Shown here: positions 5 to 30,240 of the stretch, in pieces
How the letters are laid out: each line of letters starts with the position of its first letter
How positions within the stretch are numbered: position 1 is the first letter of the stretch
NCBI GenBank assembly: GCA_030149205.1
Contig: JASBSB010000001.1
Location: 480,001 to 512,000, forward strand
Reading direction: 5' to 3'
Origin: Candidatus Heimdallarchaeota archaeon
Lineage (GTDB): Archaea > Asgardarchaeota > Heimdallarchaeia > Heimdallarchaeales > Kariarchaeaceae
Length of the DNA: 32,000 nucleotides
Position numbers and translations under genes: made by a program
Notes under the pieces: generated by a model
Seen by the model: only the letters and a program-made list of their open reading frames with translations
Told to the model about the DNA's origin: nothing
The model's database searches: none

Positions 5-1468
5 TTATTGAAATAAGGTTGTAATGATTGTACTCGGTGTGAGTGCAAAAAATATGAGGGGAAAAGCTAAGGTGATCAGAGCTAAAATTGCTAATACAAC
101 CTTTGCAGGGGTAGATGGTAACACCTCAATATCATTGGTTGGATCTCTGGTGATGATCCAAATAAATCGACCATAGTAATAGACAGAGATCGCACTTCCA
201 ATCACTAATGCTACCGCAGTAATTAGCCCAATCGATGTGTTCGTGCTAACCACCGCAGTTACCAAAAAGAATTTTCCAACAAAACCTGCAGTCGGAGGTA
301 TGCCAATTAAGGAGAATAAAAAGATCACGAGTGACCAACCCACAACCTTGTCTTTCTTAATAAGCCCTCTAAAGTTCTCAATATGGTCATTCCCAAAGGA
401 GTTCATAACAATTAACACTCCAATTACGAGTCCACCCTTCATAATCACGTTGGCAATCATGTGAGTCATCGCTGCAAACAATGCAAATCCACGCAATTCA
501 GGGGTTGTGGCCTCTGCATAAGCAACCAAGGCAACCGCGATGTACCCTGCATGCGCGATTGAAGAGTAAGCCATCAACCTCATTATTCTATTTTGAATTG
601 AAGCAATTGCATTCCCAAACAGCATAGAAAGGATAGCAAGGGTGGCGATCATCGGCCCCCAAACCCCTACACTTCCAATCAATGCAAACATGAAAACCTG
701 GAACGCAAATGTAAAGGCCATCTTTTTAGACCCTACTGCTAGATAATTTACAACAGTGACAGGTGCACCGGTATAAATATCACTCACCCACCAGTGAAAG
801 GGAATTAAAGCCAGCTTAAATGCGATTCCTCCTACAAGTATGAGTATACCGAGGTTATAGAAATTTGAACCATTTGTTAAGATTAGAGCATCATAAGATA
901 AAGAACCAGTTGCTCCATAAATTAATGAGATTCCATATATTATCAACCCAGAAGATAGAGCGCCTAGGATCACCAGTTTCATAGCAGCCTCTGTAGCCTC
1001 TCTACTTCTCTTGTAATATGCCACCATAGCATATATTGGAATTGTCATTAATTCAAATCCTACGTATAGGGGGATATAATTGGCAGAACTTGCTATTACC
1101 ACCCCTCCCATATTGGAAAGGAGAAGTAATGAACCAAATATACCAAGGTCTTTTTGTACTCTGAAATCCATAGCTGCAGAGAAAACAACAAGAAGTGAAG
1201 CGGAAAGTCCAATTATGGCAAAGATCTGATAAAAGGGATTAAACTTGAATCCAGGTACTATTGTTATCGATGTCATAGAACCTGGTGATAAAGCAACTGC
1301 CACTATTGTGAGGATGAGAGTTGAAAATACAGTGATTATGAAAAATCTCCTGTTAGTATCTGCTTTCTTAGTCACGATATCACCAAGTAAGGAGACAGTA
1401 ACTCCAATAAGTAATATAATACTTGGAGAGAAAGCTTTGAAGAGTTCGGTTATTGCAATAGCCATCAC
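5..1468 (-). CDS. nuoN: NADH:quinone oxidoreductase-like (complex I/Fpo) subunit N
   Basis: Hydrophobic 487-aa ORF with YVGFELMTIP, AFKLALIPFHWWVSDIYTGAP, RLMAYSSIAHAGY and GIPPTAGFVGKF motifs. SD AAGGAGG precedes GTG 1468/ATG 1465. Stop TAA at 5-7, so the gene is complete. Confidence 0.93.
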   Translation of the reverse strand: MMAIAITELFKAFSPSIILLIGVTVSLLGDIVTKKADTNRRFFIITVFSTLILTIVAVALSPGSMTSITIVPGFKFNPFYQIFAIIGLSASLLVVFSAAMDFRVQKDLGIFGSLLLLSNMGGVVIASSANYIPLYVGFELMTIPIYAMVAYYKRSREATEAAMKLVILGALSSGLIIYGISLIYGATGSLSYDALILTNGSNFYNLGILILVGGIAFKLALIPFHWWVSDIYTGAPVTVVNYLAVGSKKMAFTFAFQVFMFALIGSVGVWGPMIATLAILSMLFGNAIASIQNRIMRLMAYSSIAHAGYIAVALVAYAEATTPELRGFALFAAMTHMIANVIMKGGLVIGVLIVMNSFGNDHIENFRGLIKKDKVVGWSLVIFLFSLIGIPPTAGFVGKFFLVTAVVSTNTSIGLITAVALVIGSAISVYYYGRFIWIITRDPTNDIEVLPSTPAKVVLAILALITLAFPLIFFALTPSTIITTLFQ

Positions 1469-1478
1469 TAAATCCTCC

Positions 1479-3032
1479 TTACGGGAAGAAGTTCAACTTA
1501 ACCCACTGATCGAAGATTTTTTGGATGATTCCAGGGAGTACACCGAAGAGCAGTGCAAGAAGTGCTAAAACAAAAACAGGTCCACTTTCCCACCATTTTG
1601 CATCTTCTGCATTCTCTAACTCTTCTGTAACAGTCCCGAAGGCTACTCTTCTAACTGCCCAGAGATAATAACTTGCAGTGACAATTATTGATAAGAGAGC
1701 GATTATAGGAATCCAAACCCAACTTGGCTGTATGAACAATTGTGAGGTAAACAGGGATGAAAATCCAAGGAATTCTGCAACGAAGCCCGCTAAACCTGGA
1801 AGACCGGCTGAAGCAAAGGTTAAAAAGACATAGAGAGCTGTAAGAAATGGTAACTTGTGACCAAGACCCCCAACAATGTCCATATTTCTTGTGTGGTTTT
1901 TGGTATGGTGTTCCACTATACCTGCAACTAAAAACAGACCTGGAGATATTAATCCATGAGCTATCATCATAAACAAGGCTGCATTCAAACCTAAACTATT
2001 GAAAGCTGCAAGACCAAGTAAGACTATTCCCATGTGAGAGATGGAAGAATATGCAATCATTTTCTTCAAGTCTGTCTGTCTTAAAGCAATAAACGCAGGA
2101 TAAATCATGGAAACTGCACCTATTACCCCCATGATTATTCTGCTTGTATCTCCAATTGATGTTGTAAAGAACCCTGTATCAGCAATTAACCAAAAACCAA
2201 TACGGATCAGTCCATATCCACCCATTTTCAACAATAAACCTGCCAAAATAGATGATCCGGGAGAAGGCGCTTGCACATGTGCATCGGGTAACCAGGTATG
2301 AAATGGTACCTGTGGGAACTTTACTATGAAACCTATAAAGACCAACCAGAAGATCAAACTTAATTCATTGACGGATATTTTTCCTGCATTGAAATTGCTT
2401 AGAAGGTTTGCCTTGAGTGACACCATATCAAAGGTGTTGTTTCCGAAGTGATACATGAGTATTAGACCAATCAACATAACCAGTGAGGCTAAATTAGTGT
2501 AGATGAAAAATTTAAAAGCAGCATATCTTCTGTTCTCCCCACCCCACATTATAATGATAAAGAACATTGGAACAAGAACAATTTCCCAGAAGATGTAAAA
2601 TAAAAACAGATCAAGTGAGATAAATGTACCAATCAATCCTGTGAACAGAAATAGATACAAAGCATAGTATATGTCTTCTTTATCGTGAATATAAAAACTT
2701 GAGAAAACAGTCACTAAAAACACTACTTGCGATAGCATCACCAAAGGCATTGACAAACCATCAACCCCTAGATGATAGTTAATTGTAAGATTTCCTGCGG
2801 TAAACCAATTTACGTTAGTTACATAGAGAAATCCTGAGCCGTCATAACTTGGAAGTCCAAAAGTGAAATCTCTGAACCAAAGTATAAAACTAAGAACAGT
2901 GGTAACACTGATTGTTCCCACAGCAGTCCATTTACTGAAGCTTGTTTTATACCGACCTGCGTAGTATGTTGGAATAGACATTAATGCAGGAAGCCAAAGA
3001 ATAATATTCAATAAAATTTCTTCAGGTGTCAT
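1479..3032 (-). CDS. nuoM: Complex I-like subunit M (antiporter-like)
   Basis: LGVDGLSMPL, FYIFWEIVLVPMF, VKFPQVPFHTWLPDAHVQAP, LLKMGGYG, LKKMIAYSSISHMG and LPGLAGFVAEF motifs. Ends 10 nt before nuoN. Confidence 0.95.
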   Translation of the reverse strand: MTPEEILLNIILWLPALMSIPTYYAGRYKTSFSKWTAVGTISVTTVLSFILWFRDFTFGLPSYDGSGFLYVTNVNWFTAGNLTINYHLGVDGLSMPLVMLSQVVFLVTVFSSFYIHDKEDIYYALYLFLFTGLIGTFISLDLFLFYIFWEIVLVPMFFIIIMWGGENRRYAAFKFFIYTNLASLVMLIGLILMYHFGNNTFDMVSLKANLLSNFNAGKISVNELSLIFWLVFIGFIVKFPQVPFHTWLPDAHVQAPSPGSSILAGLLLKMGGYGLIRIGFWLIADTGFFTTSIGDTSRIIMGVIGAVSMIYPAFIALRQTDLKKMIAYSSISHMGIVLLGLAAFNSLGLNAALFMMIAHGLISPGLFLVAGIVEHHTKNHTRNMDIVGGLGHKLPFLTALYVFLTFASAGLPGLAGFVAEFLGFSSLFTSQLFIQPSWVWIPIIALLSIIVTASYYLWAVRRVAFGTVTEELENAEDAKWWESGPVFVLALLALLFGVLPGIIQKIFDQWVKLNFFP

Positions 3033-3211
3033 ATTGTCAAGTGGTCATTGAACTGATGTATTTTAAGGAATACGACAGGATTCTTATTTTGAACATAACT
3101 TTTTGAAAGAAAAGTTGTCAATAACTTATCGGAGACCAGAGAATATAGTTATTTTCAGTGTCCCCTCAATCTCCAAATAAACATACAACTAACTCTTGAA
3201 ATATATAATGT

Positions 3212-3919
3212 TCACTGATTTTTTCTAACGTCTGGATGCTTCCTTAAGTAATATACTTCATGTGTTATCAATAAAAGGTTAATTGCCAAAAGGACAACCC
3301 ATTGTGGATATGACCCAATTAGAGAAAAGAGAAAACTTCTTTCAATACTTGCTACTTCAATTGGGATATTAGGGAATTGATGATCACGGATTGATAAATA
3401 TGAAAATACTCTTGTGTTGTTTTTTAACAAAAGATAAATCGAAAAGTAAAGTTCTAATTCCGCCAAACTTGGACCCTTAAAGGTTAGATTAAAAATAGTA
3501 TATCGGAATTTCAAACTTGTATTCAGCTGATATGGATCAACTATCGTTCCTATAGTTTTATCCCTATTGTTCCCTATCTCTACCAAATAACCCCTTCCTA
3601 TAGAGGACCTGTTATATTCTTTCCAGAAGATTAAACCAGAGGAAGATATTCCTATTTCTTTGAAATTTAGTGAGGTTTTAGTCAAAGAAATATCAAGTGA
3701 AACGAAATAATTGACATGACTTGAAATATAAATGTGATCAGGGTATATGACCTTAGAAATTATCAGTGTAAAATTTGTGTTATTAACTCTTTTATCAACA
3801 AATTTCTCGTGATATTTCGGTTCGAGATTAAGAGTTGGGACTGAGATAAGAAAAGCTATTAGAACCAAAATTATGATAATTAATGCTAGATAAATAGATA
3901 TTATTTGTCTATTATTCAA
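3212..3919 (-). CDS. Hypothetical membrane-anchored surface protein (N- and C-terminal hydrophobic segments, beta-rich middle)
   Basis: 235-aa ORF with TTG start, GAGGT SD at 3931-3935 and TTTATATA box at 3960-3967. Six N-x-S/T sequons. No recognisable family. Confidence 0.65.
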   Translation of the reverse strand: MNNRQIISIYLALIIIILVLIAFLISVPTLNLEPKYHEKFVDKRVNNTNFTLIISKVIYPDHIYISSHVNYFVSLDISLTKTSLNFKEIGISSSGLIFWKEYNRSSIGRGYLVEIGNNRDKTIGTIVDPYQLNTSLKFRYTIFNLTFKGPSLAELELYFSIYLLLKNNTRVFSYLSIRDHQFPNIPIEVASIERSFLFSLIGSYPQWVVLLAINLLLITHEVYYLRKHPDVRKNQ

Positions 3920-3959
3920 TTTTCTGATTTACCTCAATAAATTTGTAAGATAACTAATG

Positions 3960-3967
3960 TATATAAA
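3960..3967 (-). promoter_or_regulatory. Archaeal TATA-like box for the gene between nuoL and nuoM
   Basis: TTTATATA on the minus strand, about 25 nt upstream of a GAGGT SD and about 40 nt upstream of the TTG start. Confidence 0.45.
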
Positions 3968-4156
3968 TGTGCTCTAAATAAGATTGGGTCAGTGCTAACC
4001 AACCGTCAAACGCTAATTGTGAACATTTAATCATGTGGTTAACATTAAAACTGTATCAAATTCTTTTTGGTTCTATTTGAAGATATCCTTCATCAGGTAA
4101 TTCTGTTAAACATACAAACTTTAAGTTAAATTTTGAGTTATTTATAGAAATGTCAT

Positions 4157-6298
4157 CTAGAACAGTTTTAGTTGGTTTGATACTCCGAAAGCAATCAAAA
4201 ATACTGCCAGGGAAACCATCATTAAGGTTGCGTAATTTCTGACGATACCATCCTGCAATCTTCTTCCATATCTAGCTGTGGACCTTGTGAGAGCGGCGAA
4301 GCCATTAACCACTCCATCTATGATATTTTGGTCAAATCTGTCACTTTCCTCAGCTGTCATTAGAGCACCTTCGAATACTATGTCATTTATAATGAGCTTG
4401 TCAATTACATTATAATCAAAAGTTTTGAGTGCTTCAGCAGTGGGCATAGCTACATAATCAACAAACCCGTAGATTGATTTATCAACGTAAAATCTATTGT
4501 TTATGAAGTCTTCCGCCCAAAGCAATTTTTGCCTGATTGCTTGCAATGTGTCAGGATATTTCCAGTAAAACAGCAATGCAGCTAATGCACCAGAAATCGA
4601 GAATAGACTACCAATTAACCAACCTTCAACTTCACCTGCAGTACTTGGATGAACACCAAACAAGTCACCTAATATCTTCTCGAAATTTAGCGATTCAAGT
4701 CCAGGAATGTATCCAATTGAGAACCAGAGCGATTCAAGGATTACAAGGGATGCTACACCAATCAACGGTATTGCCATCAATTTTGAAGAATCTCTTGGGA
4801 TAACCTTCTCCTTATCAAACCTTTCCTCACCGAGGAAGACGACATAGAACATCCTCATTGAATAGAAAGCTGTGATGAATGCGGTAACAATTTCTAACCA
4901 CTGTAAGAAGACTGCACCTTCGACGTTCGAATTTGCGATTCCTAGAATAATTGAATCTTTTGACCAGAAACCACTGAAGGGTGGAATCCCCGCCAGAGCA
5001 ATAAGTCCTATACCCATAGTTATTCCTGTGATCTTCATGTGTCTAAACAACCCACCCATCTCGCGAATATCTTGAGTGTGGTGTAGGTTATGAATGACTG
5101 CTCCTGCACACAAAAATAGTAGTGATTTGAATGTTGCATGTGAGACAATGTGGTAAAACGCTGGGGAAGTAGCCCCCGCACCAATACCTGAAGCAATGTA
5201 CCCCAGTTGGGAAATTGTTGAGAATGCGAGTATTCTTTTGATATCAGTGGAAGTAAGAGCCATTAAAGCACCAAGCAGTGCAGTAATCGCACCTATCCAT
5301 GTGATGACAGTACCAGTTGGGAGGTAGAATCCGGTAAACCAACTCACAGTTGGTAAGGTAGCATGAAAATTGTTAACGTCATAAAATGTCATAAAGTTAC
5401 GAATTAGTAAGAATAAACCTGCTTTTACCATAGTTGATGAATGTAACAATGCTGATACAGGCGTTGGCCCTTCCATGGCCTCTGGTAACCAACCGAACAA
5501 TGGGAACTGTGAGGATTTACCAACAGCACCTATAAAAATCAATAAACTAGGCAGAAGAAAGTCATTCGCAGAGAGCGCTCCTGTATGAACAAGTTCCATT
5601 ATTTTCACATAAGAGACATCTCCACCTGTTAATCGCATGACAGTAAATATTCCCACCATAAAGCCTACATCACCAACTTTGTTGTAGAGAAATGCTTTCA
5701 TTCCTGCAGCACTTGCTGAGGCTTTATGCCAGTAGTATCCAATCAGAAAGTAGCTAGATACCCCAAGTAATTCCCAGAACACAAAACTGGTGATTAGATT
5801 TCCAGCGTATACAAATCCCCACATTGCAGCAGTAAAGAAGTTCATAAATGCAAAAAACCTTGTGATTTCAGGTTCACCGTGCATCATATAGTCTGATGCA
5901 TAGATGTGAATAAAGAGACCAATAACTGCGAGGACAAGACTCATCAGTATACTTAATGGATCAACCATTAATTCCCAGGTCAGCTTTGTTCCTACAATAA
6001 ATGGAACTGATCCATGAATATAGGTAGGACTACCCGAAACAAAGTTCACAAAATACTGTATTGCTAATATAATTGATAGGCCTGAAGAAATCGCAATAGA
6101 TCCAACACCTATAATACTACTAAATTTTGGATTAACCTCTCTTCCCTTGTAGATCTCTAAATATCTCCAGAATATCAAGAATACAGCAGCCAACATAGGA
6201 ATGAATATTGTCCAAGCTGCGATTACTATCATATTGTCAACAGAGACATTTCCAGTGAATGCCTCAAGAATTTTTAGTGTGGTTGGAGCTTCTGCCAT
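4157..6298 (-). CDS. nuoL: Complex I-like subunit L with extended lateral helix
   Basis: FVFWELLGVSSYFLIGY, GKSSQFPLFGWLPEAMEGPTPVSALLHSSTMVKAG, ILAFSTISQLGY, HATFKSLLFL and GIPPFSGFWSKD motifs, plus C-terminal LQDGIVRNY. GGAGGT SD. Confidence 0.95.
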   Translation of the reverse strand: MAEAPTTLKILEAFTGNVSVDNMIVIAAWTIFIPMLAAVFLIFWRYLEIYKGREVNPKFSSIIGVGSIAISSGLSIILAIQYFVNFVSGSPTYIHGSVPFIVGTKLTWELMVDPLSILMSLVLAVIGLFIHIYASDYMMHGEPEITRFFAFMNFFTAAMWGFVYAGNLITSFVFWELLGVSSYFLIGYYWHKASASAAGMKAFLYNKVGDVGFMVGIFTVMRLTGGDVSYVKIMELVHTGALSANDFLLPSLLIFIGAVGKSSQFPLFGWLPEAMEGPTPVSALLHSSTMVKAGLFLLIRNFMTFYDVNNFHATLPTVSWFTGFYLPTGTVITWIGAITALLGALMALTSTDIKRILAFSTISQLGYIASGIGAGATSPAFYHIVSHATFKSLLFLCAGAVIHNLHHTQDIREMGGLFRHMKITGITMGIGLIALAGIPPFSGFWSKDSIILGIANSNVEGAVFLQWLEIVTAFITAFYSMRMFYVVFLGEERFDKEKVIPRDSSKLMAIPLIGVASLVILESLWFSIGYIPGLESLNFEKILGDLFGVHPSTAGEVEGWLIGSLFSISGALAALLFYWKYPDTLQAIRQKLLWAEDFINNRFYVDKSIYGFVDYVAMPTAEALKTFDYNVIDKLIINDIVFEGALMTAEESDRFDQNIIDGVVNGFAALTRSTARYGRRLQDGIVRNYATLMMVSLAVFLIAFGVSNQLKLF

Positions 6299-6300
6299 AA

Positions 6301-6651
6301 TTAATCAACCTCCGTATTTTCAGCAAGAGAGAAGATATCTAAGACAGATATTTCTCCAAAGTTTCTGTATAATGAAATAAAAATTGCTAATGCAATTGCT
6401 GCTTCTGCAGCGGCAATTGCTACTACAATCATTGCAAACGCCCAGCCAAGATATTGATCACTAACAGCGGCATTAGAAGCTGCTGTAGATCTCAAATAGC
6501 TGTTGAAAGCTACAAAGTTGATGTTTGCTGAATTTAAGATAAGTTCAATTGAGAAAAGCAATCGAACAGCGCTTCTTTGGGTAAGAATACCAAGTATTCC
6601 TACTGAGAATAATACCATGGATAAAGCAACAAAATATTCTAAAGGTATCAT
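6301..6651 (-). CDS. nuoK: Complex I-like subunit K
   Basis: SIELILNSANINFV and AIAAAEAAIALA, with both conserved glutamates. ATGA overlap with nuoJ. Confidence 0.93.
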   Translation of the reverse strand: MIPLEYFVALSMVLFSVGILGILTQRSAVRLLFSIELILNSANINFVAFNSYLRSTAASNAAVSDQYLGWAFAMIVVAIAAAEAAIALAIFISLYRNFGEISVLDIFSLAENTEVD

Positions 6652-7214
6652 GTGGTAGTTTCCTCCGGATATAATTTGGGTTTTTCTTCGTAATCGTCTG
6701 AGTCATCTGACATTGCCAACTTTACCGAACCCAGAAGGGCAGCTAAGAATAGAGCGGATAAGAAGGGAAGAATAAATGCGAGCCCAAAATTTTCCTGCCA
6801 AATGTTGTGGAAGAACTGTTCTAACAGTGTGTTCCCATTGTTTGTTGTAAAGATGTTTCCGGTGCTCGCTGGGATTTGGGCGACTAGAGTCCCCAACAGA
6901 ACCAATAACAGAACTCCAGCAACAATAACTGGCATCACAAGATTGCTGTTAAAAAATTCGAAATTGTCCTCTGTGTAACTGGTTAACCTTCCAGCGAAAA
7001 GTAATAACACAGCTATACCTCCAGAATAAACACTTAGCTGTATAACCCAAAGAAATTCTGAATTTGCAAATAGAAAGACATTAGCCACTCCAATAAGCGT
7101 AAGAATCAGAAAAAGGGCGCTTCGGATAACTGTTCTAGAGTAAAGAACACCTATCCCCATTAACACTGTGTATATTGCATTCAAAACAAATAAAATCAAT
7201 AAGTAATCTACCAT
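6648..7214 (-). CDS. nuoJ: Complex I-like subunit J
   Basis: VIRSALFL, SEFLWVIQLSVYSGGIAVLLLF and C-terminal F..LSALFLAALLGSV helix. Lies between nuoH and nuoK. Confidence 0.9.
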   Translation of the reverse strand: MVDYLLILFVLNAIYTVLMGIGVLYSRTVIRSALFLILTLIGVANVFLFANSEFLWVIQLSVYSGGIAVLLLFAGRLTSYTEDNFEFFNSNLVMPVIVAGVLLLVLLGTLVAQIPASTGNIFTTNNGNTLLEQFFHNIWQENFGLAFILPFLSALFLAALLGSVKLAMSDDSDDYEEKPKLYPEETTT

Positions 7215-7218
7215 ATTT

Positions 7219-8334
7219 TCACCCCAACACTCCTGTTGACCATATCATAATAAACGATCCAAAAATACTCGCTAAGAGTAATTGTTTCCAACCGAAGCTT
7301 AACAACTGATCTATTCTCATTCTTGGAAAAGCGGTTCGAAAAGTTGTAGCTACATAAATAAAGAAATATGCTTTGACAGTGACTGTGATGAATTGGATCC
7401 ATAAGTTGCTTCGAAGCTCATATAACCAGGTTGGCCAAGTAAAAATCACACCACCATTAAAATTGTAAATTGCGTTTCCAAATGGCCAGAAGTCAAATCC
7501 ACCAAAGAACAAGAAGATAAACAAAAGGGAGTTTACTGTAAGATGAACATATTCAGTCATCATAATTAACGCGTATCTCCATCCTGAGAACTCTGTTCTT
7601 GGTCCCATTACTAACTCTGCTTCAGCTTCTGGAATATCAAAGGGAACTCTCTCGGTTTCGGCAAGTCCTGCAATATAAAATACAAAGGCTGCAATTAACC
7701 CACCAATTCCAAATCCACTAAATAGAAACCAGCCAGCATGCATTTGATAAAGAGCTATGTCATTTAATGAGAAGGAATTTACAATTGCGATAACTCCTAA
7801 AACAGAGATGAACATTGGGATCTCATAAGCCAGTAATTGACCTGCTGCTCGAAATCCACCTATGAGTGCATATTTTGAGTTACTTGCCCATCCACCAATA
7901 AACATGGCTGGGGGAACAATAGAAAATATTGCGAAAACATAAAGTACACCTATTGTTAAATCTGCACCCAATACTCCATTTGCAAAGGGTAGAGGTACAA
8001 ATGCCATTATAGAGCTAACTCCTATGAAAAAGATTGCCATAAAGAATCCAAGTGAATCAGCCGTCTTTGGCATAGTATCTTCTTTAAGTACAAGTTTTAG
8101 AAGGTCTGCAGGTATCTGTAATATACCTCGCCATCCAACATAAACTGGACCTCTTCTACCCTGTTGACGGGCCATAACCTTTCTTTCTACATAAGGCATG
8201 ATTAATTGATTAATCATAATATAGTTTGCCAGTAGAAAGGTTCCCAAGGCTATTGCAACAACATCTGGAATTGTGATCTGAATTCCAAGAATATTAAAGG
8301 TTCCTGATAGGAAAGGGTTTACTGGTGATGCCAT
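7219..8334 (-). CDS. nuoH: Complex I-like subunit H
   Basis: ERKVMARQQGRRGP..VGWRGILQIPADLLKLVLKED, SNSKYALIGGFRA, ETERVPFDIPEAEAELV and PRMRIDQL motifs. Confidence 0.95.
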   Translation of the reverse strand: MASPVNPFLSGTFNILGIQITIPDVVAIALGTFLLANYIMINQLIMPYVERKVMARQQGRRGPVYVGWRGILQIPADLLKLVLKEDTMPKTADSLGFFMAIFFIGVSSIMAFVPLPFANGVLGADLTIGVLYVFAIFSIVPPAMFIGGWASNSKYALIGGFRAAGQLLAYEIPMFISVLGVIAIVNSFSLNDIALYQMHAGWFLFSGFGIGGLIAAFVFYIAGLAETERVPFDIPEAEAELVMGPRTEFSGWRYALIMMTEYVHLTVNSLLFIFLFFGGFDFWPFGNAIYNFNGGVIFTWPTWLYELRSNLWIQFITVTVKAYFFIYVATTFRTAFPRMRIDQLLSFGWKQLLLASIFGSFIMIWSTGVLG

Positions 8335-10252: not shown

Positions 10253-11416
10253 TCAAGACCGTGTTTTGATCTGCTCTAAATCCTGCTGAAGTCTCTCTGT
10301 CCTTTCAAGATTAAAGTCCAACACTGTATTTTTTATCTGTTCTTCTTTCAAAATAACTTTCTTACGAACATCTCTTGCGATTTGCATGATTTCCATTACT
10401 TTTGGAGAAAAGGGCAGACCCGCTAGTATGGCATTTAATGAGGGTTTCCCAATGGTTTTATACTCTTTTACTGAGTCCAATTTAATATATTTTAAGAAGG
10501 GTTTTTCGAGAAATGAATCTCTAAAACGGGTCGCTTCATAGCTATAATCAATGTTTTTGAATCCCTCCTTAAAAATTGAACAAAAGACCTTTTTAGATTT
10601 TAAGATTAATTCTTCAGGTAGATTTGTCTGTTCGATGACTGATTCAACCACCATATCCTTGTATCTGAAGTTTGTTTCACCACTGATAGATTCTTTTAAC
10701 TCTTTGTAAGTTATCACAGAGATTCCTGGTGTAAATAGAACCTCAAGCAGGTCTTGGTAACCCGCCTCAAAATCTGGTCTTACTGCTTCTTGGAATCCCG
10801 AGACAAATAAATTCGTAAGTCCTATCACAGTAGAATCCAAATTATAATCAACTGTCTCTGAAAAAGGAAGAGTATTTATCTCAGAGGGGGGATCATTATG
10901 AATTAAGATTAGATTGTTCCTAGTTGCAGTATCCGAGCCCGAAAGTTCGAATATAAGAGTGGAAATATTAAAATAAACCCTGGAACTCTCAAATTCCATA
11001 GGAAGGACAACTAAAATAGGGGGTATCTTGTTAAACTTTGTTTTGAGGATCTGACTTACCAGTAAAGTGGATGCTGTTCCTGTACCTCCACCTCCTGTAA
11101 TTATAAGAGTGATACCTTCTTTCTTTCCAAAGAGTTTCGATAATTCTCTTTCAATCTCCTCAGCATTCTCCAGAGCTGCTTCATAGGCCATGGATAAATT
11201 CCTTGCAAATCCTGCCTGGTTTTTGGTTATTTGAATCCTTCGAGAGTAGACTTCTCTTCCAGAATTAGAATGTTTTGAATTAATTGCCAAACTTTTCACA
11301 TTTATTTCTCCACCCTCTTGTATAGTGTGAATCATTTTTTCCCCAACTTTCTCTCCTATGTCTCCACATGCAATAATAGAAACATCAATATTTTTAGAAA
11401 ATAAATTAAACTTCAT
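10253..11416 (-). CDS. Divergent tubulin/FtsZ-superfamily GTPase, CetZ-like (paralog B)
   Basis: Motifs in the expected order: T1-like IIACGDIGEKVG, T2 LAINS, T3 AGFARNLSMA, T4 GGGGTGTA, T5 LPMEFE, T6 LIHND, T7-like FEAGYQDL, then a C-terminal LAGLPFSPKV..I..A helix. ATG 11416 follows an AGGTGA SD that overlaps the upstream stop; the ORF track starts at GTG 11425. Confidence 0.8.
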   Translation of the reverse strand: MKFNLFSKNIDVSIIACGDIGEKVGEKMIHTIQEGGEINVKSLAINSKHSNSGREVYSRRIQITKNQAGFARNLSMAYEAALENAEEIERELSKLFGKKEGITLIITGGGGTGTASTLLVSQILKTKFNKIPPILVVLPMEFESSRVYFNISTLIFELSGSDTATRNNLILIHNDPPSEINTLPFSETVDYNLDSTVIGLTNLFVSGFQEAVRPDFEAGYQDLLEVLFTPGISVITYKELKESISGETNFRYKDMVVESVIEQTNLPEELILKSKKVFCSIFKEGFKNIDYSYEATRFRDSFLEKPFLKYIKLDSVKEYKTIGKPSLNAILAGLPFSPKVMEIMQIARDVRKKVILKEEQIKNTVLDFNLERTERLQQDLEQIKTRS

Positions 11417-11425
11417 AATATTCAC

Positions 11426-12730
11426 CTAGCTGATTAGTTCTAATATCAATGGAATACCTCTCCAAGCATAGATCGTAAATAATGTTGAGAAGTAAAGCAA
11501 GCGGAACGGATTGATAGGGCTTGGTTTCATTCCGTGAATGTATTGTCGAATTATGAAAATGAATTGAAGGTCTGTCTGCAATTCTTTTTTCTTCCCCAGT
11601 GCAACATCAGTAATTTGTTCATAAATATAAGGATCTAATTCCATCAATGCTTTTTTACGGAACTTTCCCATATTGTTAGAGATCGTGATAATTGGTTTTA
11701 AAATCTGGCTAAATGAGAGGAGCAACGAGAACACCAATGCCCCTAATACTATATTTCGGATGATATTTATTTTAGTCAGAAGGATGGTAGGAGAACTTCC
11801 TAGGTTGAAAATATAAAATAAAGAAATTGGGGCGGTAATGAGTAAAACAAGAGAGTTTGACAGGAAAGTTGATGTAAGGAGCCCTTGTAAAGGAATGTCA
11901 CCAAGTGATTGAATTGATAATCCTGGTGTATCTGTTAAAACTTTGACCACCTCATAATTATTTTTTGACAGGATTGAATCATGTCCTTTATTGTAACCAC
12001 CTGCCCTTCTAGATATCTCATTTAACATTAAATTGTACAATTTTGAATTTGTTCTAACAAATATTAAAATTGAGAGGTTGATGTATATGACTATAAGTAC
12101 GCCTATGGAACCTATTAACCCAATTATTGAAGCAATGATAATATAGATGATATGAATTTTTAACATGAACATTATAAATAGAAACTCAACGTCTATCAGT
12201 ACTGTAATAAGAATGGAAATATAGAAAAGATTTTTTGAGAGTTTTTGACTATACATTTCGACAAATTGTGATTCAAAGACTTCTGCTATCCAGGGTGCTA
12301 ATTTATTTGATTGGATGGATTTGAATTTCTCATAAGTTGATCGAAAATATATCGGGCTATAAATTAACCCTGAAATTATAAGAATAGCTAAGAAGATAGC
12401 CACCCCTAAAGATTTCATTATGTAACCTGTCCAAATTAGTAGTCCAATATGGGTCATTGAAATAATCAATGGTAATAATATAAACAAATTTCGGTATGAG
12501 TTTTTTGACATAAAGAAGTACCCATTGACTGGGAGGTTTCGGAAAACATTGGGAAGCTTTAGAATGTTGCGAAATGGTGATTCCAATAAGTCTATTAAAT
12601 TTACGTATTGTGCATCTAAACCTTCGGGGGCTTCATTTTCAAATTTCTCTAAGAATGGTTCAAAACTGAATTGAATATCATTTGGTGTTTTTGGATTCGG
12701 AGTGGCATTGACAAATTTTTTTGTGTACAT
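11426..12730 (-). CDS. Uncharacterised polytopic membrane protein (about 6-7 TM helices)
   Basis: Several 20-30-aa hydrophobic stretches with soluble N-terminal, central and C-terminal loops. ATG 12730 follows a GAGGAG SD at the end of the upstream gene; the ORF track starts at 12769. Confidence 0.8.
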   Translation of the reverse strand: MYTKKFVNATPNPKTPNDIQFSFEPFLEKFENEAPEGLDAQYVNLIDLLESPFRNILKLPNVFRNLPVNGYFFMSKNSYRNLFILLPLIISMTHIGLLIWTGYIMKSLGVAIFLAILIISGLIYSPIYFRSTYEKFKSIQSNKLAPWIAEVFESQFVEMYSQKLSKNLFYISILITVLIDVEFLFIMFMLKIHIIYIIIASIIGLIGSIGVLIVIYINLSILIFVRTNSKLYNLMLNEISRRAGGYNKGHDSILSKNNYEVVKVLTDTPGLSIQSLGDIPLQGLLTSTFLSNSLVLLITAPISLFYIFNLGSSPTILLTKINIIRNIVLGALVFSLLLSFSQILKPIITISNNMGKFRKKALMELDPYIYEQITDVALGKKKELQTDLQFIFIIRQYIHGMKPSPINPFRLLYFSTLFTIYAWRGIPLILELIS

Positions 12731-12734
12731 TTTA

Positions 12735-14063
12735 TTAATCTCCTCTTCGAAGCCTAGCCGCCTCTGCATCTAGTTCTTCATTTAATTCACTCGCATCTTT
12801 TACATCAATTTCAGAGTTTACTTCTAACTTATCAATTTTAGGATTTCCCTTACTATAATTCGACCTCTCGATTTCTTTCTCTATCTGATGGACTCTAAAA
12901 TCTTCTGCATCTCTGAGAAGAACTCTTACTCTTTTTGGTGGTTCCAAACCTGACAATATTCCTGTAATTTCTGCACCTTCAGTCTCTTTTAGCAGATATT
13001 TTTGAAAGACGTCAATATTTTTAAAATGTTTGAAGATTTCAAAGTACATTTCACTACTAAAGAAGTTCTTCTCAGAAAACATCTGAACAAATCCTCGGGT
13101 AGCACTTTGTAAGCTAGTAGAAATTAAAGTTGACTTATCAAATTCTTCATACAAACTTTCACTTCCTAGTTTGTCAATCTTATCAACTTTCAGACCAAAA
13201 AAAGTCCCAATTCCTCTATAAACCTTGGTGGCTTCTAGAAGTTCATTCAAATCACTTGATACGCCATAACTCCTTTGCAATGTGCCAAGTAATAATTCAG
13301 AGAGAATTTTCCCTATTGAAGCGTTAATTCTCAATAGCAATGTTTCCTGAGAAAGTGCTCGATTTGCCTCAAAATAATGTTGATTATCAATTAACAGCAA
13401 ATTGCAATTTTCGGAACGATCAATTGGTGCAGAGTTAAGGCAATAAATACCATAGGCTGCTGTAAATTGAACAAGAGTTGGTTCGATCTCAAACGGTAAA
13501 ATCAGAACAGGGATTGGAGACTTTCCCAACTTTTTAAGTAACTTTACCAAAACTAGTCCTGCTCCTATTCCAGTACCTCCCGAACCCATAACTACAAACA
13601 CACTCTGATCTTCTAGTTGTTGGTCAAAGGCTTGGAAATATTCCGTAATCTTGACTTTAAGGGGTTCTATATCCTTAGTAAATAAACCCTCAGCTTTTTT
13701 AACCTGCTTTGCAGATGTGGAGACATTTGTTGAGTATTTGTAGATATAATCTAAATCTTGAGGATTTGTTGCAAAATCCCCCAAAAGTCCAACTCCCATT
13801 GACTTGTAACCTGGACAAAAATTTTTAATCGTGTGAGTGATCAAATTTACAATTTCAATCCCCGCACCACCGACCCCAATTATAGGCAGTTGGGGGTAAG
13901 GATAGAGCTGAACTTGAGATGGTTGTATAAAATTATATGACAAGAGGTCAGGTAATTTTGAATATAACTCGTCTTTAATCTTAATTTGTTCAAACATAGA
14001 TAAATTTGAGAGGGATATAACAGAACTCTGTGATTTTTTTCTTTGAAAGGGAAGTTGAACCAT
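12735..14063 (-). CDS. Divergent tubulin/FtsZ-superfamily GTPase, CetZ-like (paralog A)
   Basis: T1 IIGVGGAGIEIV, T4 GSGGTGIG, T5 LPFEIE, T6 LLIDNQ, T7 VSSDLNELL, C-terminal LSGLEPPKRV..L..A helix and an acidic tail. Likely start ATG 14063; the ORF track starts at TTG 14105. Confidence 0.82.
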   Translation of the reverse strand: MVQLPFQRKKSQSSVISLSNLSMFEQIKIKDELYSKLPDLLSYNFIQPSQVQLYPYPQLPIIGVGGAGIEIVNLITHTIKNFCPGYKSMGVGLLGDFATNPQDLDYIYKYSTNVSTSAKQVKKAEGLFTKDIEPLKVKITEYFQAFDQQLEDQSVFVVMGSGGTGIGAGLVLVKLLKKLGKSPIPVLILPFEIEPTLVQFTAAYGIYCLNSAPIDRSENCNLLLIDNQHYFEANRALSQETLLLRINASIGKILSELLLGTLQRSYGVSSDLNELLEATKVYRGIGTFFGLKVDKIDKLGSESLYEEFDKSTLISTSLQSATRGFVQMFSEKNFFSSEMYFEIFKHFKNIDVFQKYLLKETEGAEITGILSGLEPPKRVRVLLRDAEDFRVHQIEKEIERSNYSKGNPKIDKLEVNSEIDVKDASELNEELDAEAARLRRGD

Positions 14064-14082
14064 ACTTGTATCTTTCGTGATT

Positions 14083-14091
14083 TTTATTAAG
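14083..14091 (-). promoter_or_regulatory. TATA-like box for the tubulin-like operon
   Basis: CTTAATAAA on the minus strand about 20 nt upstream of ATG 14063, compatible with a leaderless transcript. The AT-rich background limits certainty. Confidence 0.3.
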
Positions 14092-14188
14092 ATTTTATGT
14101 GACAATACTTGACGATGAGTAATTTTTCTCTAATTGCTGTTCACAATTTACATTTATGTTCGAAATAATTCCTAGTGCAATAATTTAA

Positions 14189-14196
14189 TTTAATAA
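14189..14196 (+). promoter_or_regulatory. TATA-like box for pyk
   Basis: TTTAATAA ending 23 nt before ATG 14220 with no SD, typical leaderless archaeal spacing. Confidence 0.35.
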
Positions 14197-14219
14197 GAAT
14201 TGATATCTTTGGTACTCCA

Positions 14220-15789: not shown

Positions 15790-17802
15790 GTGAGTTTTGA
15801 TGATAAAGAATTATTTGGAGAATTAGCCAACAAGATCGGTGCTGAGGATTTGACAGATCCAGGATTGTTATTAGAACGGGGAGATAAAGAAAAAGCAAAT
15901 TCAAACAATGCAACAGCACAATCATTTTTTGAAAAAGCATTAGCTGCATCTACAGCCAAAGCTGCAAGGTTGGAAGAGAGTAGCCAGTATCGATCAGCAG
16001 CAGAAATGAACTTTATCGGTGCAGAGGCAAACCTAAGACTTGGGAAGACTGAAGAAGCAATGGGGTTATATAACAAGGTCGGAGAACAATTACTAATTGC
16101 GGGAAAAAATTACATCGATATGTATAATGAGTACTTTGACGGAGTCCTCTGTGTAACCTTAGGAAGCTTAGTAAACATATTACAAGGTAAAATTGATGAG
16201 GCAAAGAGTGTTTATTTAGAATACATAAAGAAACTAGATGAAGCGGGAGAATCAGGAAAACTTCAGCAAGGTGGAGAAACTCTTAAACAGACTATTTGGT
16301 CGGTCGGGTATATCCTCAAAGCATTGCAAGATACAGATCATGAGGCTCTTCAAAATGCACAACAACTTATCTCAACCAATATCAAGCCGAATTTAATCAA
16401 AGCAAAACTATCTAAAATAGCACCGTTACTCGATCAAGTGGTCTCATACACGTTAAATTACTTTCAATCTCAAATCAAGCTACCAAAGATTACTCATAGC
16501 CTGACTCTCCCTAATGAGATGCTTCTAAATCAGATATTTGATATTAAGATGACGATTGGAAATACTGGAGAAGGGGACGCTTCAAATCTACATGTGACAT
16601 TTAATTTGCCAGAAGACTTTGAAATATTGGGTGGTAAAAAAGAGATTTCAATATCTCAAGTCCCTAAAAATACGCAGGAAGAGATTAATCTAAAACTGAG
16701 AATATTATCTTCAGATAGTGAAGACAAGGTGATTCCCTTCAATGGGAAAATTACTTATCAAGATATGCTCCAGAATGATTTGGTTTCATTTATTGGTCCT
16801 TTAGATCTAGAGATAAGAGCAAACAGCCAAAAGGATGAATTACAAAAGAAATTTACCGAAATTAAAGGAGCAATTGAATCTTTATTTCTAGAGGTAAAAG
16901 ACCAGAAATATCCAAATTCGTTTATTCAAAATCTAACCAATAAAATGAACAAAATATTTGAAACCACTGAGAGTGAATTAAGAGTTGAACATTTTGAAAC
17001 TGTTAAAGCAAATCTAAGTCAACTTACAAATGAAAAGGAATGGCTACAAGAACTTTTCAGAGGAAACTCAGGTAAGATGATTCAAGAAGAACTAAAATCT
17101 AGCAAGGAAAAATATGCCAATGAACGTGTTTCATCACGTGAATCTGAGCTACAATCTCAGTTTGACAAGACAAAGGAAGAGCTTATTTACACTAAAGAAA
17201 AAGAAAAGGATGCAGCTTTACTAAGTCTTAGAAATGAAATTGAGGAAAAAAACAAAAAATTGGTTGAAGGTAAAGAAAAAGAATTTGAAGAGAGATTGAA
17301 GGCAGAAGAGAAAAAATATGAGATTAAATTAAAACAGGTTGTAAATGAAACGAAGGAACGTCAGGCTCTAGAACACCAACAAAAAATTGAGGTTATTAAC
17401 AATAAAAACGAAGTTGGTATCCGTCAGATTCAAGAAGAATATCAAAATGATCTTAAGACAAAAGTTGAGGAAATTAAGAAGCAAGAGGATATAAAGTTAG
17501 AAGAAGAGCTCCGTAAACTTAAATCAGAACACTATGAAGAGTTACGTAAATTAGAAGCGAGCCTACAAGAAGAAAAGGAGTCTGAAATTCAAAACATGAA
17601 AGCACAACATGCAAATGAAATCGATGCTTTGAAAAATCAATATTCAAGTCAACATTCGTCAGATTTACAAGAAAAAATCAGCTTTGCCAAGGATGAGACA
17701 AAAGCTGAACTCACCAGACAATTCCAATTAAAGGAAGAAGAATACAAAAAGGAAATTGAAGGGTTAAAACACAGAATAGCCCAGTTGGAGAGTAATTTTT
17801 AA
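15790..17802 (+). CDS. Soluble multidomain protein: TPR/SNAP-like helical repeat (aa ~25-228), Ig-like/CARDB-type domain (aa ~231-343), long coiled coil (aa ~345-670)
   Basis: GTG start with AGGTGAT SD. Ala-rich helical repeats, then I..TIGNTGEGDASNL.V...LP..F and G.ITYQD beta pattern, then an E/K/Q-rich heptad region. No TM segment or signal peptide. Confidence 0.75.
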   Translation: MSFDDKELFGELANKIGAEDLTDPGLLLERGDKEKANSNNATAQSFFEKALAASTAKAARLEESSQYRSAAEMNFIGAEANLRLGKTEEAMGLYNKVGEQLLIAGKNYIDMYNEYFDGVLCVTLGSLVNILQGKIDEAKSVYLEYIKKLDEAGESGKLQQGGETLKQTIWSVGYILKALQDTDHEALQNAQQLISTNIKPNLIKAKLSKIAPLLDQVVSYTLNYFQSQIKLPKITHSLTLPNEMLLNQIFDIKMTIGNTGEGDASNLHVTFNLPEDFEILGGKKEISISQVPKNTQEEINLKLRILSSDSEDKVIPFNGKITYQDMLQNDLVSFIGPLDLEIRANSQKDELQKKFTEIKGAIESLFLEVKDQKYPNSFIQNLTNKMNKIFETTESELRVEHFETVKANLSQLTNEKEWLQELFRGNSGKMIQEELKSSKEKYANERVSSRESELQSQFDKTKEELIYTKEKEKDAALLSLRNEIEEKNKKLVEGKEKEFEERLKAEEKKYEIKLKQVVNETKERQALEHQQKIEVINNKNEVGIRQIQEEYQNDLKTKVEEIKKQEDIKLEEELRKLKSEHYEELRKLEASLQEEKESEIQNMKAQHANEIDALKNQYSSQHSSDLQEKISFAKDETKAELTRQFQLKEEEYKKEIEGLKHRIAQLESNF

Positions 17803-20892: not shown

Positions 20893-21792
20893 ATGGACAT
20901 TTTGACGCTTTCTGTTCTGGTTTTATTGCTCTTCCTGATTATAGGCTTTAGCTCTTTCTGGTACATTATTAAACAGATTTATCTCCCACCTTATCCACCA
21001 CATCTTCGTGGAAAGATCCCCTCAATCCCAGATTTTGATGGATATATCGCACCAACCAAAAGTTGGGAGAAACGATTAAGAGTAAGAGTATGGGAGGTAG
21101 AGGGGAAAAAGATCATATTGTTTTTTCACGGGTGGGATTCTTCATCAGGATTTTTTAGCCAGTACGTGATGCAATTCAAAGAGAAAGGATGGACTGTGGT
21201 CACAGTAGACCTTAGATCAATGGGCGAAAGTGAAAGACAAGCTCTGGTTTCACAAATTGATTTTGCTGAAGATATTCAACAGGCTTTATCTTGGGTTCTT
21301 GAAAAATACCCATCAAAGTCAGACATAACAATTTATGGACACAGTATTGGAGGGGTTTCCTTGATTTTAGGGTTGGGATGGAAAATTATTGATCAGTCTA
21401 AACTGAATCAGATTGTGACTGAAGGAATATATGCAGATAGTAATTATCTTTTAAATCGAATGGTAAACAAATTTCCGTTTAAATCTCAAATTAAACCGAT
21501 TTTTTTGAAATTTCTAATGATAAGGTTAAAACAAGTTTACAAGAACAATCCACATAAATGGGTCCTTAACAGTACCACAAATCTGGATCCATTCCGACAA
21601 TTAAACAAAATTGATGTACCACTGTTAATGATCCATACTGAGAATGATGAAATCGTTAACTATTCTGAAACTGAACTGTTCAAACTTCACAAGAAAGCAA
21701 ATGTGAGATTCTTAAGTTTCAGGACTGGTGGTCACTTTCGCCTATCTTATGAAAATGAGTTCTTTGTAAAACTCTTTAACGAGATTGAATAA
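20893..21792 (+). CDS. Membrane-anchored alpha/beta-fold hydrolase
   Basis: N-terminal TM helix, FFHGW, VDLRSMGES, nucleophile elbow GHSIGG, then IHTENDEIV (Asp) and GGH (His). Confidence 0.85.
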   Translation: MDILTLSVLVLLLFLIIGFSSFWYIIKQIYLPPYPPHLRGKIPSIPDFDGYIAPTKSWEKRLRVRVWEVEGKKIILFFHGWDSSSGFFSQYVMQFKEKGWTVVTVDLRSMGESERQALVSQIDFAEDIQQALSWVLEKYPSKSDITIYGHSIGGVSLILGLGWKIIDQSKLNQIVTEGIYADSNYLLNRMVNKFPFKSQIKPIFLKFLMIRLKQVYKNNPHKWVLNSTTNLDPFRQLNKIDVPLLMIHTENDEIVNYSETELFKLHKKANVRFLSFRTGGHFRLSYENEFFVKLFNEIE

Positions 21793-22468
21793 TTTCTGAT
21801 GTAAGCGTAGCTTTTGCTCCAAACTTTCGTTCACTTCCACTTAAAAGACGTTTAATGTTTTCTCTATGAGTATAATAAAGCAATCCAATATAGAAATAGA
21901 TTAAAAAGAAATACATATCCATACCAGATGACCCTGTATTTAATAGAATAGCATCTTGTCTCATGAAAAATATTGGATAAAGTGCAACAACACCTATTAA
22001 GTTCCCTAAACTTGTGAAACGGGTGGATCCAACTACCAAGAGCCATATGACTAACAGAAACATGAAGGATACTGGGTCAATTCCAAGAATTACACCCGCT
22101 GTGGTCGCACCACCCTTTCCTCCTTTAAATTTTAAAAATATTGAAAAACAATGACCTATGACCACTAAACCTGATGAAATTACAACAATTACAGTAGGGT
22201 CTGCAAAAATCCCTGTGGAGGGAAAGGCATTAGTGTACCAATATGCAACCCTAACGACGAAGGTGCCCTTTAATACATCTACAATACCAGCAAATAGACC
22301 TACTTTAACTCCCATAGTCCTTGCAGCATTAGCACCACCCACATTCCCAGAACCTACCTTTGTAATATCAAAACCATAGCCATATCGAGCAATAACATAT
22401 GAAGTTGGAAATGACCCGACAATGTAGGATAGTACAATGATTATAATTTCATACACATACATACCCAC
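21776..22468 (-). CDS. plsY: Acyl-phosphate:glycerol-3-phosphate acyltransferase (PlsY family)
   Basis: All three PlsY motifs: GSFPT/GSGNVGGANAAR, GHCFSIFLKFKGGKGGAT and HRENIKRLLSGSE. Confidence 0.92.
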   Translation of the reverse strand: MGMYVYEIIIIVLSYIVGSFPTSYVIARYGYGFDITKVGSGNVGGANAARTMGVKVGLFAGIVDVLKGTFVVRVAYWYTNAFPSTGIFADPTVIVVISSGLVVIGHCFSIFLKFKGGKGGATTAGVILGIDPVSFMFLLVIWLLVVGSTRFTSLGNLIGVVALYPIFFMRQDAILLNTGSSGMDMYFFLIYFYIGLLYYTHRENIKRLLSGSERKFGAKATLTSEIIQSR

Positions 22469-22666: not shown

Positions 22667-23053
22667 ATGAACAAAGAGATCATTTCATCTGATAAAGCTC
22701 CTGCAGCAATAGGACCTTACTCACAAGCTATTAAACTTGACAACCTACTTTTTTCTAGTGGGCAGGTTGCTTTTATACCTGGTACAAAACAATTAGTCCA
22801 AGATACAATAGCTGAAGAAACTCGTCAGGTATTAACCAACTTGCAAAATCTGGTTGAAGAGGCGGGGTCCTCATTACGTCATGCTCTGAAAATTACCATT
22901 TTTATGACTGATATGAACAATTATTCAATAATAAACAAAGTTTATGCAGAATTTTTTGGAGAGTCGAAACCTGCAAGAAGTGCGGTTAGTGTTTCAAAAT
23001 TGCCTGCAGGTGCAAATATTGAAATAGAGGGTATTTTTTACATCCCAAAATAA
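22667..23053 (+). CDS. ridA: RidA/YjgF enamine-imine deaminase
   Basis: APAAIGPYSQA, SSGQV, NKVYAEFF, PARSAV (conserved Arg) and LPAGANIEIE motifs. Confidence 0.93.
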   Translation: MNKEIISSDKAPAAIGPYSQAIKLDNLLFSSGQVAFIPGTKQLVQDTIAEETRQVLTNLQNLVEEAGSSLRHALKITIFMTDMNNYSIINKVYAEFFGESKPARSAVSVSKLPAGANIEIEGIFYIPK

Positions 23054-29209: not shown

Positions 29210-29230
29210 ATACTAAAGAGAGAACACTTC

Positions 29231-30166: not shown

Positions 30167-30240
30167 TTGTTTTAATTTTGTGAGACTTTAGATACTTTAT
30201 GATTACGGAGACATTAACAAATATAGTTTATACGTCAATT

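Follow-up and report, generated by a model that had tools for sequence, protein, structure and literature searches.

We report a three-gene operon, A-M-B, in which a polytopic membrane protein (M) is encoded between two tubulin-superfamily paralogs (A and B), and which we judge, with a probability of roughly 0.55, to specify a membrane-coupled two-paralog filament system. The operon lies in a 32,000-nucleotide stretch of DNA (hereafter the window, to which all positions refer) from a Candidatus Heimdallarchaeota archaeon, namely positions 480,001 to 512,000 of contig JASBSB010000001.1 in GenBank assembly GCA_030149205.1, forward strand.

Few known archaea are as close to eukaryotes as the Heimdallarchaeia, whose cytoskeleton is investigated as a source of clues to the origins of eukaryotic cell architecture. 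As we read it, the module adds an undescribed branch to the tubulin superfamily, with two paralogs of split roles of which one is repeatedly a pseudo-GTPase—a parallel to the logic of alpha/beta-tubulin—and ties this pair to an archaeal version of the insect chemoreceptor fold, the seven-transmembrane-domain ion channel (7TMIC) fold. In insects, 7TMICs are ion channels or sensors; to our knowledge, no prokaryotic function of the fold is known. A-M-B may represent a new cytoskeletal system, coupled to the membrane, in archaea closely related to eukaryotes; its three genes are small and open to direct experiment. Full-text literature searches returned no description of the operon, in keeping with the initial annotation, which had proposed it from the sequence alone as a new system, and papers on Asgard tubulin and Odin FtsZ do not mention the module.

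Two tubulin-superfamily paralogs flank a membrane protein gene

The genome carrying the window comprises 3.3 Mb in 12 contigs, with the module on a contig of 995 kb; its genus-level relatives are Candidatus Heimdallarchaeota, which agrees with the Asgard host that the initial annotation had supposed. The operon and its signals are laid out as follows.

14064–14219, no strand: AT-rich spacer of 156 bp between A and the pyruvate kinase gene; presumed promoter region of the A-M-B operon
12735–14063, minus strand: paralog A, 442 aa, predicted tubulin-superfamily GTPase
12740–12745, minus strand: Shine-Dalgarno-like GAGGAG within the 3′ end of gene A, 9 nt ahead of the M ATG (read in the sequence)
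11426–12730, minus strand: membrane protein M, 434 aa, seven helices, modeled 7TMIC (insect gustatory/odorant receptor-like) fold
11422–11427, minus strand: Shine-Dalgarno-like AGGTGA for B, overlapping the M stop codon TAG (11428–11426), 5 nt ahead of ATG 11416 (read in the sequence)
10253–11416, minus strand: paralog B, 387 aa counted from ATG 11416, tubulin-superfamily protein

Open reading frames (ORFs) and junctions bear out the arrangement originally described, that is, three genes on one strand with near-zero spacing, a GAGGAG ahead of the start of M, and an M stop that overlaps the AGGTGA of B. The A stop codon TAA occupies 12737–12735 and the M ATG (12730) comes 4 nt later. For B, ATG 11416 is most likely the start rather than GTG 11425, because homologs begin with MKF at this point and the database copy is 387 aa long. 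ATG 14063 as the start of A is backed by a methionine that is invariant at position 1 across 16 homologs.

A and B are tubulin/FtsZ-superfamily proteins. The Pfam Tubulin profile (PF00091; cut-off 33 bits) scores B at 36.4 bits, above the cut-off, and A at 26.7 bits, below it. The T1, T4 and T7 motifs noted earlier could be read in both proteins, as GVGGAG, GSGGTGIG and a D..E pair in A, and as a weakened GDIGEKVG, GGGGTG and the key T7 Asp in B, where a long C-terminal helix pair follows. A ends in a conserved, acidic tail that closes with RRG(D/E). The structure model of B is a complete tubulin fold, with a Rossmann-like GTPase domain, the core helix H7 and a C-terminal domain, and profile searches with both families place them in the same superfamily. 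Relatives of A are scarce: only 20 were retrieved when 1.84 billion representative proteins were scanned exhaustively with HMMER, and the names seen on database relatives are all 'hypothetical protein' from Heimdallarchaeota.

The two paralogs had been described as very divergent from each other. This holds for the pairwise comparison (BLASTP, 30% identity over 89 aa, E 1e-4) but not for the family profiles (16 homologs for A, 21 for B), which hhalign aligns over 351 columns with a probability of 100 and E 9e-41. It follows that A and B belong to one subfamily and are paralogous over their full length. Neither protein is FtsZ, since both reach 26–29 bits against a cut-off of 295.2 for the FtsZ equivalog TIGR00065, and neither matches FtsZ_C. 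Tubulin_2 gave no match to A or B at E values up to 1. A single canonical FtsZ (165 bits) is encoded elsewhere in the genome, so that division has a protein of its own apart from A and B. In line with the earlier remark that no division gene is nearby, a Pfam scan found none among 24 other window ORFs (ORFs at 28055–31476 lying outside the scan).

Within the superfamily, the label 'CetZ-like' first given to the pair stands only in part. In favor of it, comparison of the B model with solved structures ranks CetZ marginally first, roughly tied with TubZ (top Foldseek match, TM-score 0.70). Sequence profiles point elsewhere. The PDB profile search with the A family returned RepX, the TubZ homolog of pXO1, first (1.4e-10), then CetZ (1.6e-9) and FtsZ (~2e-8), and that with the B family RepX (4ei7; 6.6e-18 across residues 11–343), then CetZ and FtsZ. 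Likewise, the C-terminal L(S/A)G...P(K/R) helix thought to resemble that of CetZ is a real feature, a (S/A)GLP..(K/R) motif common to A and B, but it aligns with AGLPLPKRV of RepX/TubZ. In a quick tree, the Heimdallarchaeial A and B sequences form a clade apart from RepX and TubZ, with 91 in the Shimodaira–Hasegawa-like approximate likelihood ratio test and long RepX/TubZ branches, the trees containing no CetZ, PhuZ or tubulin sequences. Bacillus thuringiensis TubZ formed a very long branch in the quick tree and was left out of the careful tree; a joint A/B hidden Markov model does not detect it. The family is thus placed in the CetZ/TubZ neighborhood and is not demonstrably inside either group; it is best explained as a CetZ/TubZ-like branch of the tubulin superfamily that had no name so far.

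M and B stay together across one Heimdallarchaeial order

We surveyed a sample of 400 Asgard genomes, with families labeled f1 to f5 and f1 being the family of this Heimdallarchaeon. The M profile matched 11/11 genomes of f1, 1/1 of f2, 30/31 of f3, 2/3 of f4 and 1/22 of f5, and none of 330 other Asgard genomes in the same search. The range of M covers all four sampled families of one Heimdallarchaeial order, plus one doubtful f5 bin. Full-length matches to the B family (E 1e-15 or better) came from the same genomes and contigs as M, with the exception of the f2 genome G010, whose contig ends inside M; B-family matches in other genomes were weaker and shorter, and the sampled ones grouped with FtsZ.

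Every genome with both genes carries M and B as neighbors on one contig, unless the contig ends between them, and B starts ~10–50 bp past M wherever the contig continues. In the sampled lineages the two genes stay adjacent or overlapping down to protein identities of ~21% (B) and 20% (M). Such invariable adjacency argues that the gene arrangement is not due to chance. A lies directly upstream of M in f1, f2, f4 and one metagenomic contig, so that the triplet, whose conservation in relatives the initial annotation had singled out for checking, is kept in these three families. In family f3, the A ortholog is a diverged gene, A′, which is encoded on the opposite strand, either next to M-B or up to two genes off, and mostly within 5 kb. 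In a maximum-likelihood tree, A′ falls inside the A clade with a support of 100/99.8 (B monophyly receives only 71/41). The A/B duplication is therefore older than the families of the order. The module genes are single-copy and present in every sampled family of the order. Their divergently oriented pyruvate kinase neighbor was confirmed with Pfam here and in an f3 locus (L025), and f1 and f4 loci have an ORF of similar size at that position.

The only f5 genome with an A-M-B triplet (1 of 22; L031, G061:C52) carries it on a contig of 4 kb in its entirety, with f1-like proteins, and is likely a case of a misbinned contig or a recent transfer. A-profile matches in f5 (E ~1e-9) were considered as relatives of the module and rejected, as the three inspected were canonical FtsZ genes, two of them adjoining ribosomal-protein and Pelota-like genes. 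Seven draft genomes showed single in-frame stops in otherwise full-length matches: TGA in B (G040, G024), TAG in B (G020, G041), TAA in M (G046) and TAA in A (G010, G044). These may be assembly errors or pseudogenes.

The GTP pocket decays in one paralog at a time

Aligning the nucleotide-binding motifs by family revealed the following states.

A, f1: T1 canonical; T4 (S/A)GGTG in 12/12; T7 final Glu in 12/12
B, f1: T1 GDxG; T4 xG(G/A)TG; T7 Asp in 12/12
A′, f3: T1 lost; T4 GGTG kept in 0/22; T7 with Asn at the position of FtsZ D212 in 20/22
B, f3: T1 G(V/I)GNAG; T4 GGGTG in 25/27; T7 Asp in 27/27
A, f4: T1 mostly kept (GVGQAG); T4 kept; T7 Glu kept
B, f4: T1 weakened (GDFAG); T4 lost in 2/2; T7 mixed, Asp in one and Asn in the other

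Pocket decay is one-sided and runs in opposite directions, affecting A′ in f3 and B in f4. The decayed copies retain intact frames of 418–448 aa, which points to a retained, probably non-enzymatic role as a partner. Decay strikes A in f3 but B in f4, as would be expected if the two paralogs worked within one complex requiring a single active site. Judging from these motifs, the f3 pattern favors a homopolymer of the competent paralog in that family, with the other as a putative cap or adaptor.

M adopts a predicted chemoreceptor-like fold conserved on its cytoplasmic face

M matches no family in Pfam, NCBIfam or PHROGs, and a protein-atlas feature search returned unnamed clusters only. Its structure model (predicted local distance difference test (pLDDT), 82.6; predicted template modeling score, 0.80) has helices at residues 76–104, 108–141, 166–189, 194–247, 273–309, 314–377 and 408–433. 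The polytopic membrane protein of the initial annotation thus has seven helices in the model, to which we can add a recognizable fold. The modeled outer loops span 3–4 residues; transmembrane helices (TM) 4, 5 and 6, of 54, 37 and 64 residues, would project into the cytoplasm; and TM7 is split into 7a (386–399) and 7b (408–433) with a break between them. Helix lengths, short outer loops and a split TM7 are the criteria that define 7TMICs (Himmel, Moi and Benton 2023, bioRxiv 10.1101/2023.08.30.555482). Hydropathy strongly supports TM1–6, with TM7b falling under the scan threshold. As regards the orientation typical of 7TMICs, with the N-terminus inside and the C-terminus outside, Lys and Arg are concentrated in the predicted cytoplasmic loops, with essentially none in the three short outer loops.

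Foldseek returned no PDB match to M at E 0.001 or better. Its weak matches (TM-scores of 0.3–0.4) were consistently gustatory and odorant receptors (Gr, Or) and PHTF, in both the PDB and AlphaFold DB; the similarity to solved Or/Gr channels lies above background and is clear only with an aligner independent of Foldseek. As modeled, M shares the 7TMIC fold with insect Gr/Or channels, and besides being an anchor it might therefore also work as a channel or a sensor. At the level of sequence, M differs from the superfamily members (insect Or/Gr, PHTF) in that no similarity is detectable. Heimdallarchaeota 7TMICs have been described as structurally nearest to the eukaryotic ones, with eukaryote-like long TM4 and TM5, in a preprint whose text mentions neither tubulin, FtsZ nor operons (Himmel et al. 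2023, 10.1101/2023.08.30.555482). The preprint's supplement gives no accession numbers by which M might be matched to these proteins.

Conservation within M is concentrated on one side of the membrane. Of the 39 columns conserved at 90% or more, 37 fall in predicted cytoplasmic segments, and none lies in the outer loops or the membrane parts of TM3–7b. The conserved segments are the N-terminal peptide, intracellular loop (IL) 1, the TM4 extension with IL2, the TM6 extension and TM7a.

Structure prediction also yielded a candidate complex of M and B. Its interaction prediction score from aligned errors (ipSAE) was 0.42 (runs of 0.37, 0.42 and 0.52), compared with 0.01 for the best control, and across runs at least 95% of the contacts agree, with a partner pLDDT of at least 73. 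We take this as weak support for contact. For calibration, 58 of 80 solved complexes passed the ipSAE mark, against 2 of 110 mismatched pairs; the passes at 0.60 or less comprised only 7 of the 80 solved complexes, but both of the mismatches.

A model of membrane-coupled filaments and its alternatives

Taken as a membrane-coupled filament system, A and B would act as one unit. They might build an alternating heteropolymer; alternatively, the GTP-competent paralog would polymerize and the degenerate one would serve as a cap, nucleator or adaptor. This unit would be coupled to the membrane via the conserved cytoplasmic helical domain of M, which would correspond to the 'anchor domain' of the insect receptors. 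The outcome would be a membrane-attached, GTP-driven filament apart from the FtsZ division machinery, with membrane or shape remodeling, or the positioning or gating of M, as candidate roles. The genes, their close packing, their linkage throughout the order, the homologies, the folds and the pattern of motifs are what the data show; from these we infer A-B assembly, GTP turnover, binding to M and any cellular role. The membrane-anchored two-component filament of the initial annotation remains the favored interpretation, with a putative role in cell shape, protrusion or remodeling and with its anchoring part resting on gene linkage, conservation of the cytoplasmic face of M and a weak complex score. 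A narrower version, in which M is a eukaryote-like 7TMIC channel whose cytoplasmic anchor domain is itself the nucleation or docking site of the two-paralog filament, is tentative and on balance doubtful. If this version is true, it would amount to direct coupling of a receptor or channel to the cytoskeleton in Heimdallarchaeia, would place a prokaryotic 7TMIC in a functional context for the first time, and would be an independent case of a tubulin-like pair evolving an alpha/beta-style division of labor.

Several points weigh against this model. Binding, polymerization and GTPase activity of A and B are predictions from gene and model data; the fold model covers B and not A, and A-B contact is proposed from sequence. 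In f3, A′ has neither a nucleotide pocket nor the catalytic residue of T7, so that a strictly alternating A′-B filament would be unable to hydrolyze GTP there, and the heteropolymer could not be the general form. The score for M and B lies in a band where passes would be wrong more often than right unless the prior is high, and it is the invariant adjacency and the cytoplasmic conservation of M that raise the prior for their contact. Finally, its modeled 7TMIC fold hints that M is a channel and has its own function, in which case 'anchor' may be a misnomer.

This last point leads to an unlikely alternative, in which M is mainly an ion channel or sensor and A and B are its regulators or effectors, clustering, positioning or gating it or assembling on its signal. 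The fold with its split TM7 and long TM4–6, the structural proximity of Heimdallarchaeota 7TMICs to eukaryotic ones and the tight operon linkage, which fits equally well, would all be in line with such a role. However, conservation in M is lowest in the membrane helices and outer loops, contrary to what a ligand site or a conserved pore would lead one to expect—not one column in TM3–TM7b or the outer loops reaches 90%—and no channel activity has been reported for any prokaryotic 7TMIC (Himmel et al. 2023, 10.1101/2023.08.30.555482). Less probable still, A and B could form separate homopolymers with unrelated roles, their proximity to M being inherited synteny. Both paralogs of this genome do keep T4 and an acidic T7 residue, and the A′ of f3 has moved to the other strand, at a distance of as many as two genes. 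Against this speak a decay of the pocket that affects A in f3 and B in f4 while both genes stay intact and linked, and an M-B junction that persists in all sampled lineages despite protein identities of ~20–21%.

The remaining alternative, a chromosomal TubZ-type (type III) DNA segregation system in which A and B move or anchor DNA and M is the membrane tether, we consider very improbable. It draws on the likeness to TubZ/RepX (PDB 4ei7, 2xka), the best profile match of both paralogs, with which they have in common the C-terminal GLP.PKR motif followed by a long terminal helix (AGLP.PKR in the full motif); RepX further shows the same D..E pattern in T7 as A. Yet TubZ and RepX serve the type III partition of plasmids and phages, whereas the present module is chromosomal and archaeal, and a single protein there contrasts with two paralogs linked to a membrane protein here, at an identity of only 17–18%. 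In pBtoxis and pXO1, a small gene lies directly upstream of tubZ/repX, annotated in pBtoxis as a MarR winged helix-turn-helix regulator. At the A-M-B locus, we found no small TubR-like winged-helix gene upstream, where the 156 bp spacer reaches pyruvate kinase, and no iterated centromere-like repeats. The context is one of housekeeping genes rather than of a mobile element, no PHROG family of known function was matched, the genes occur in single copy in every sampled family of the order, and the tail of A is acidic, not basic.

Comparison with other tubulin-superfamily systems

Structurally, the B model is similar to solved CetZ, a group of tubulin-like proteins that act in archaeal cell shape (PDB 4b45, 4b46, 3zid), but the B profile scores 31 bits for CetZ compared with 68 for RepX, A scores slightly lower for CetZ, and the CetZ literature we found describes no paralog pair around a seven-TM gene. 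With alpha/beta-tubulin, BtubA/B and Asgard AtubA/B, the module shares paired paralogs and the loss of catalytic turnover at one nucleotide site; the one-sided decay of the pocket in A and B follows the same evolutionary logic as in tubulin heterodimers. It differs from them in its weak sequence match (E 5e-4 to 4e-3), in the lack of a Tubulin_C domain in A and B and of evident microtubule features, in the link to a membrane protein, and in that the decaying paralog varies by family.

Conceptually, FtsZ and its anchors SepF, FtsA and ZipA offer a parallel, namely a tubulin-like filament tethered by a protein encoded nearby, although these anchors are peripheral and M is polytopic with a modeled channel fold. 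FtsZl1 operons have a membrane-remodeling role predicted from gene context (Makarova and Koonin 2010). In contrast to those, no vWA, P-loop GTPase or OmpA genes occur near A-M-B, and A and B lack Tubulin_2. A CetZ-like group termed 'Asg.Tub' has been reported from LC-3, B3-JM-08 and Thorarchaeales (Santana-Molina et al. 2023). Identity of A and B with this group was rejected, as the lineages set the two apart and the M/B module was not found in LC-3, B3-JM-08 or Thorarchaeales. The C-terminus of Asg.Tub (PMC9871819, supplement) reads FGLP(K/R)(V/I)PE followed by a helix, recalling GLP.PKR of A, B and RepX, and on this sequence likeness Asg.Tub may be a distant sister of the A/B family.

Neighboring genes

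Around the operon, the window holds genes for nuo subunits, a peptidyl-prolyl isomerase, AlaX, an HD hydrolase, pyruvate kinase and UppP. The pyruvate kinase gene is divergent from A across the 156 bp spacer. Directly after it, on the plus strand (15790–17802), lies a gene for a 670 aa protein that matches no Pfam family and consists of a helical N-terminal part, a beta-rich middle and a coiled coil of ~300 aa. ORFs of 668–685 aa occupy the equivalent place in three genus-level relatives (L033, L035, L036). In f3, a gene for a protein of ~1000 aa follows A′ on the same strand (L025:1088-4015, L029:312-3380, L030:659-3691, L032:4336-7326); of two such proteins scanned with Pfam, one had no match and one only weak LVIVD-repeat and CD36 matches. 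This gene may be a lineage-specific fourth component. A fourth component shared between families was considered and dropped, as no homology links the 670 aa coiled-coil protein with the ~1000 aa protein of f3.

Downstream of B, relatives differ in gene content. A PlsY-like gene comes directly after B in f1 (L033, with ORFs of 216–220 aa in L006-L008, L010, L014 and L015), and an L-PSP gene does so in a Logan contig. In the present Heimdallarchaeon, the corresponding genes, a homolog of PlsY-type glycerol-3-phosphate acyltransferase (21776–22468, minus strand) and a RidA/L-PSP gene (22667–23053, plus strand), lie ~10 kb from B, the mark of a local rearrangement. It is also unusual for an archaeon to carry a PlsY of the bacterial type. 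Lastly, positions 5–8334 (minus strand) are taken up by a run of complex I membrane-subunit genes, comprising three Proton_antipo_M genes and nuoK-, nuoJ- and nuoH-like genes, into which an ORF of 235 aa without annotation is inserted at 3212–3919.

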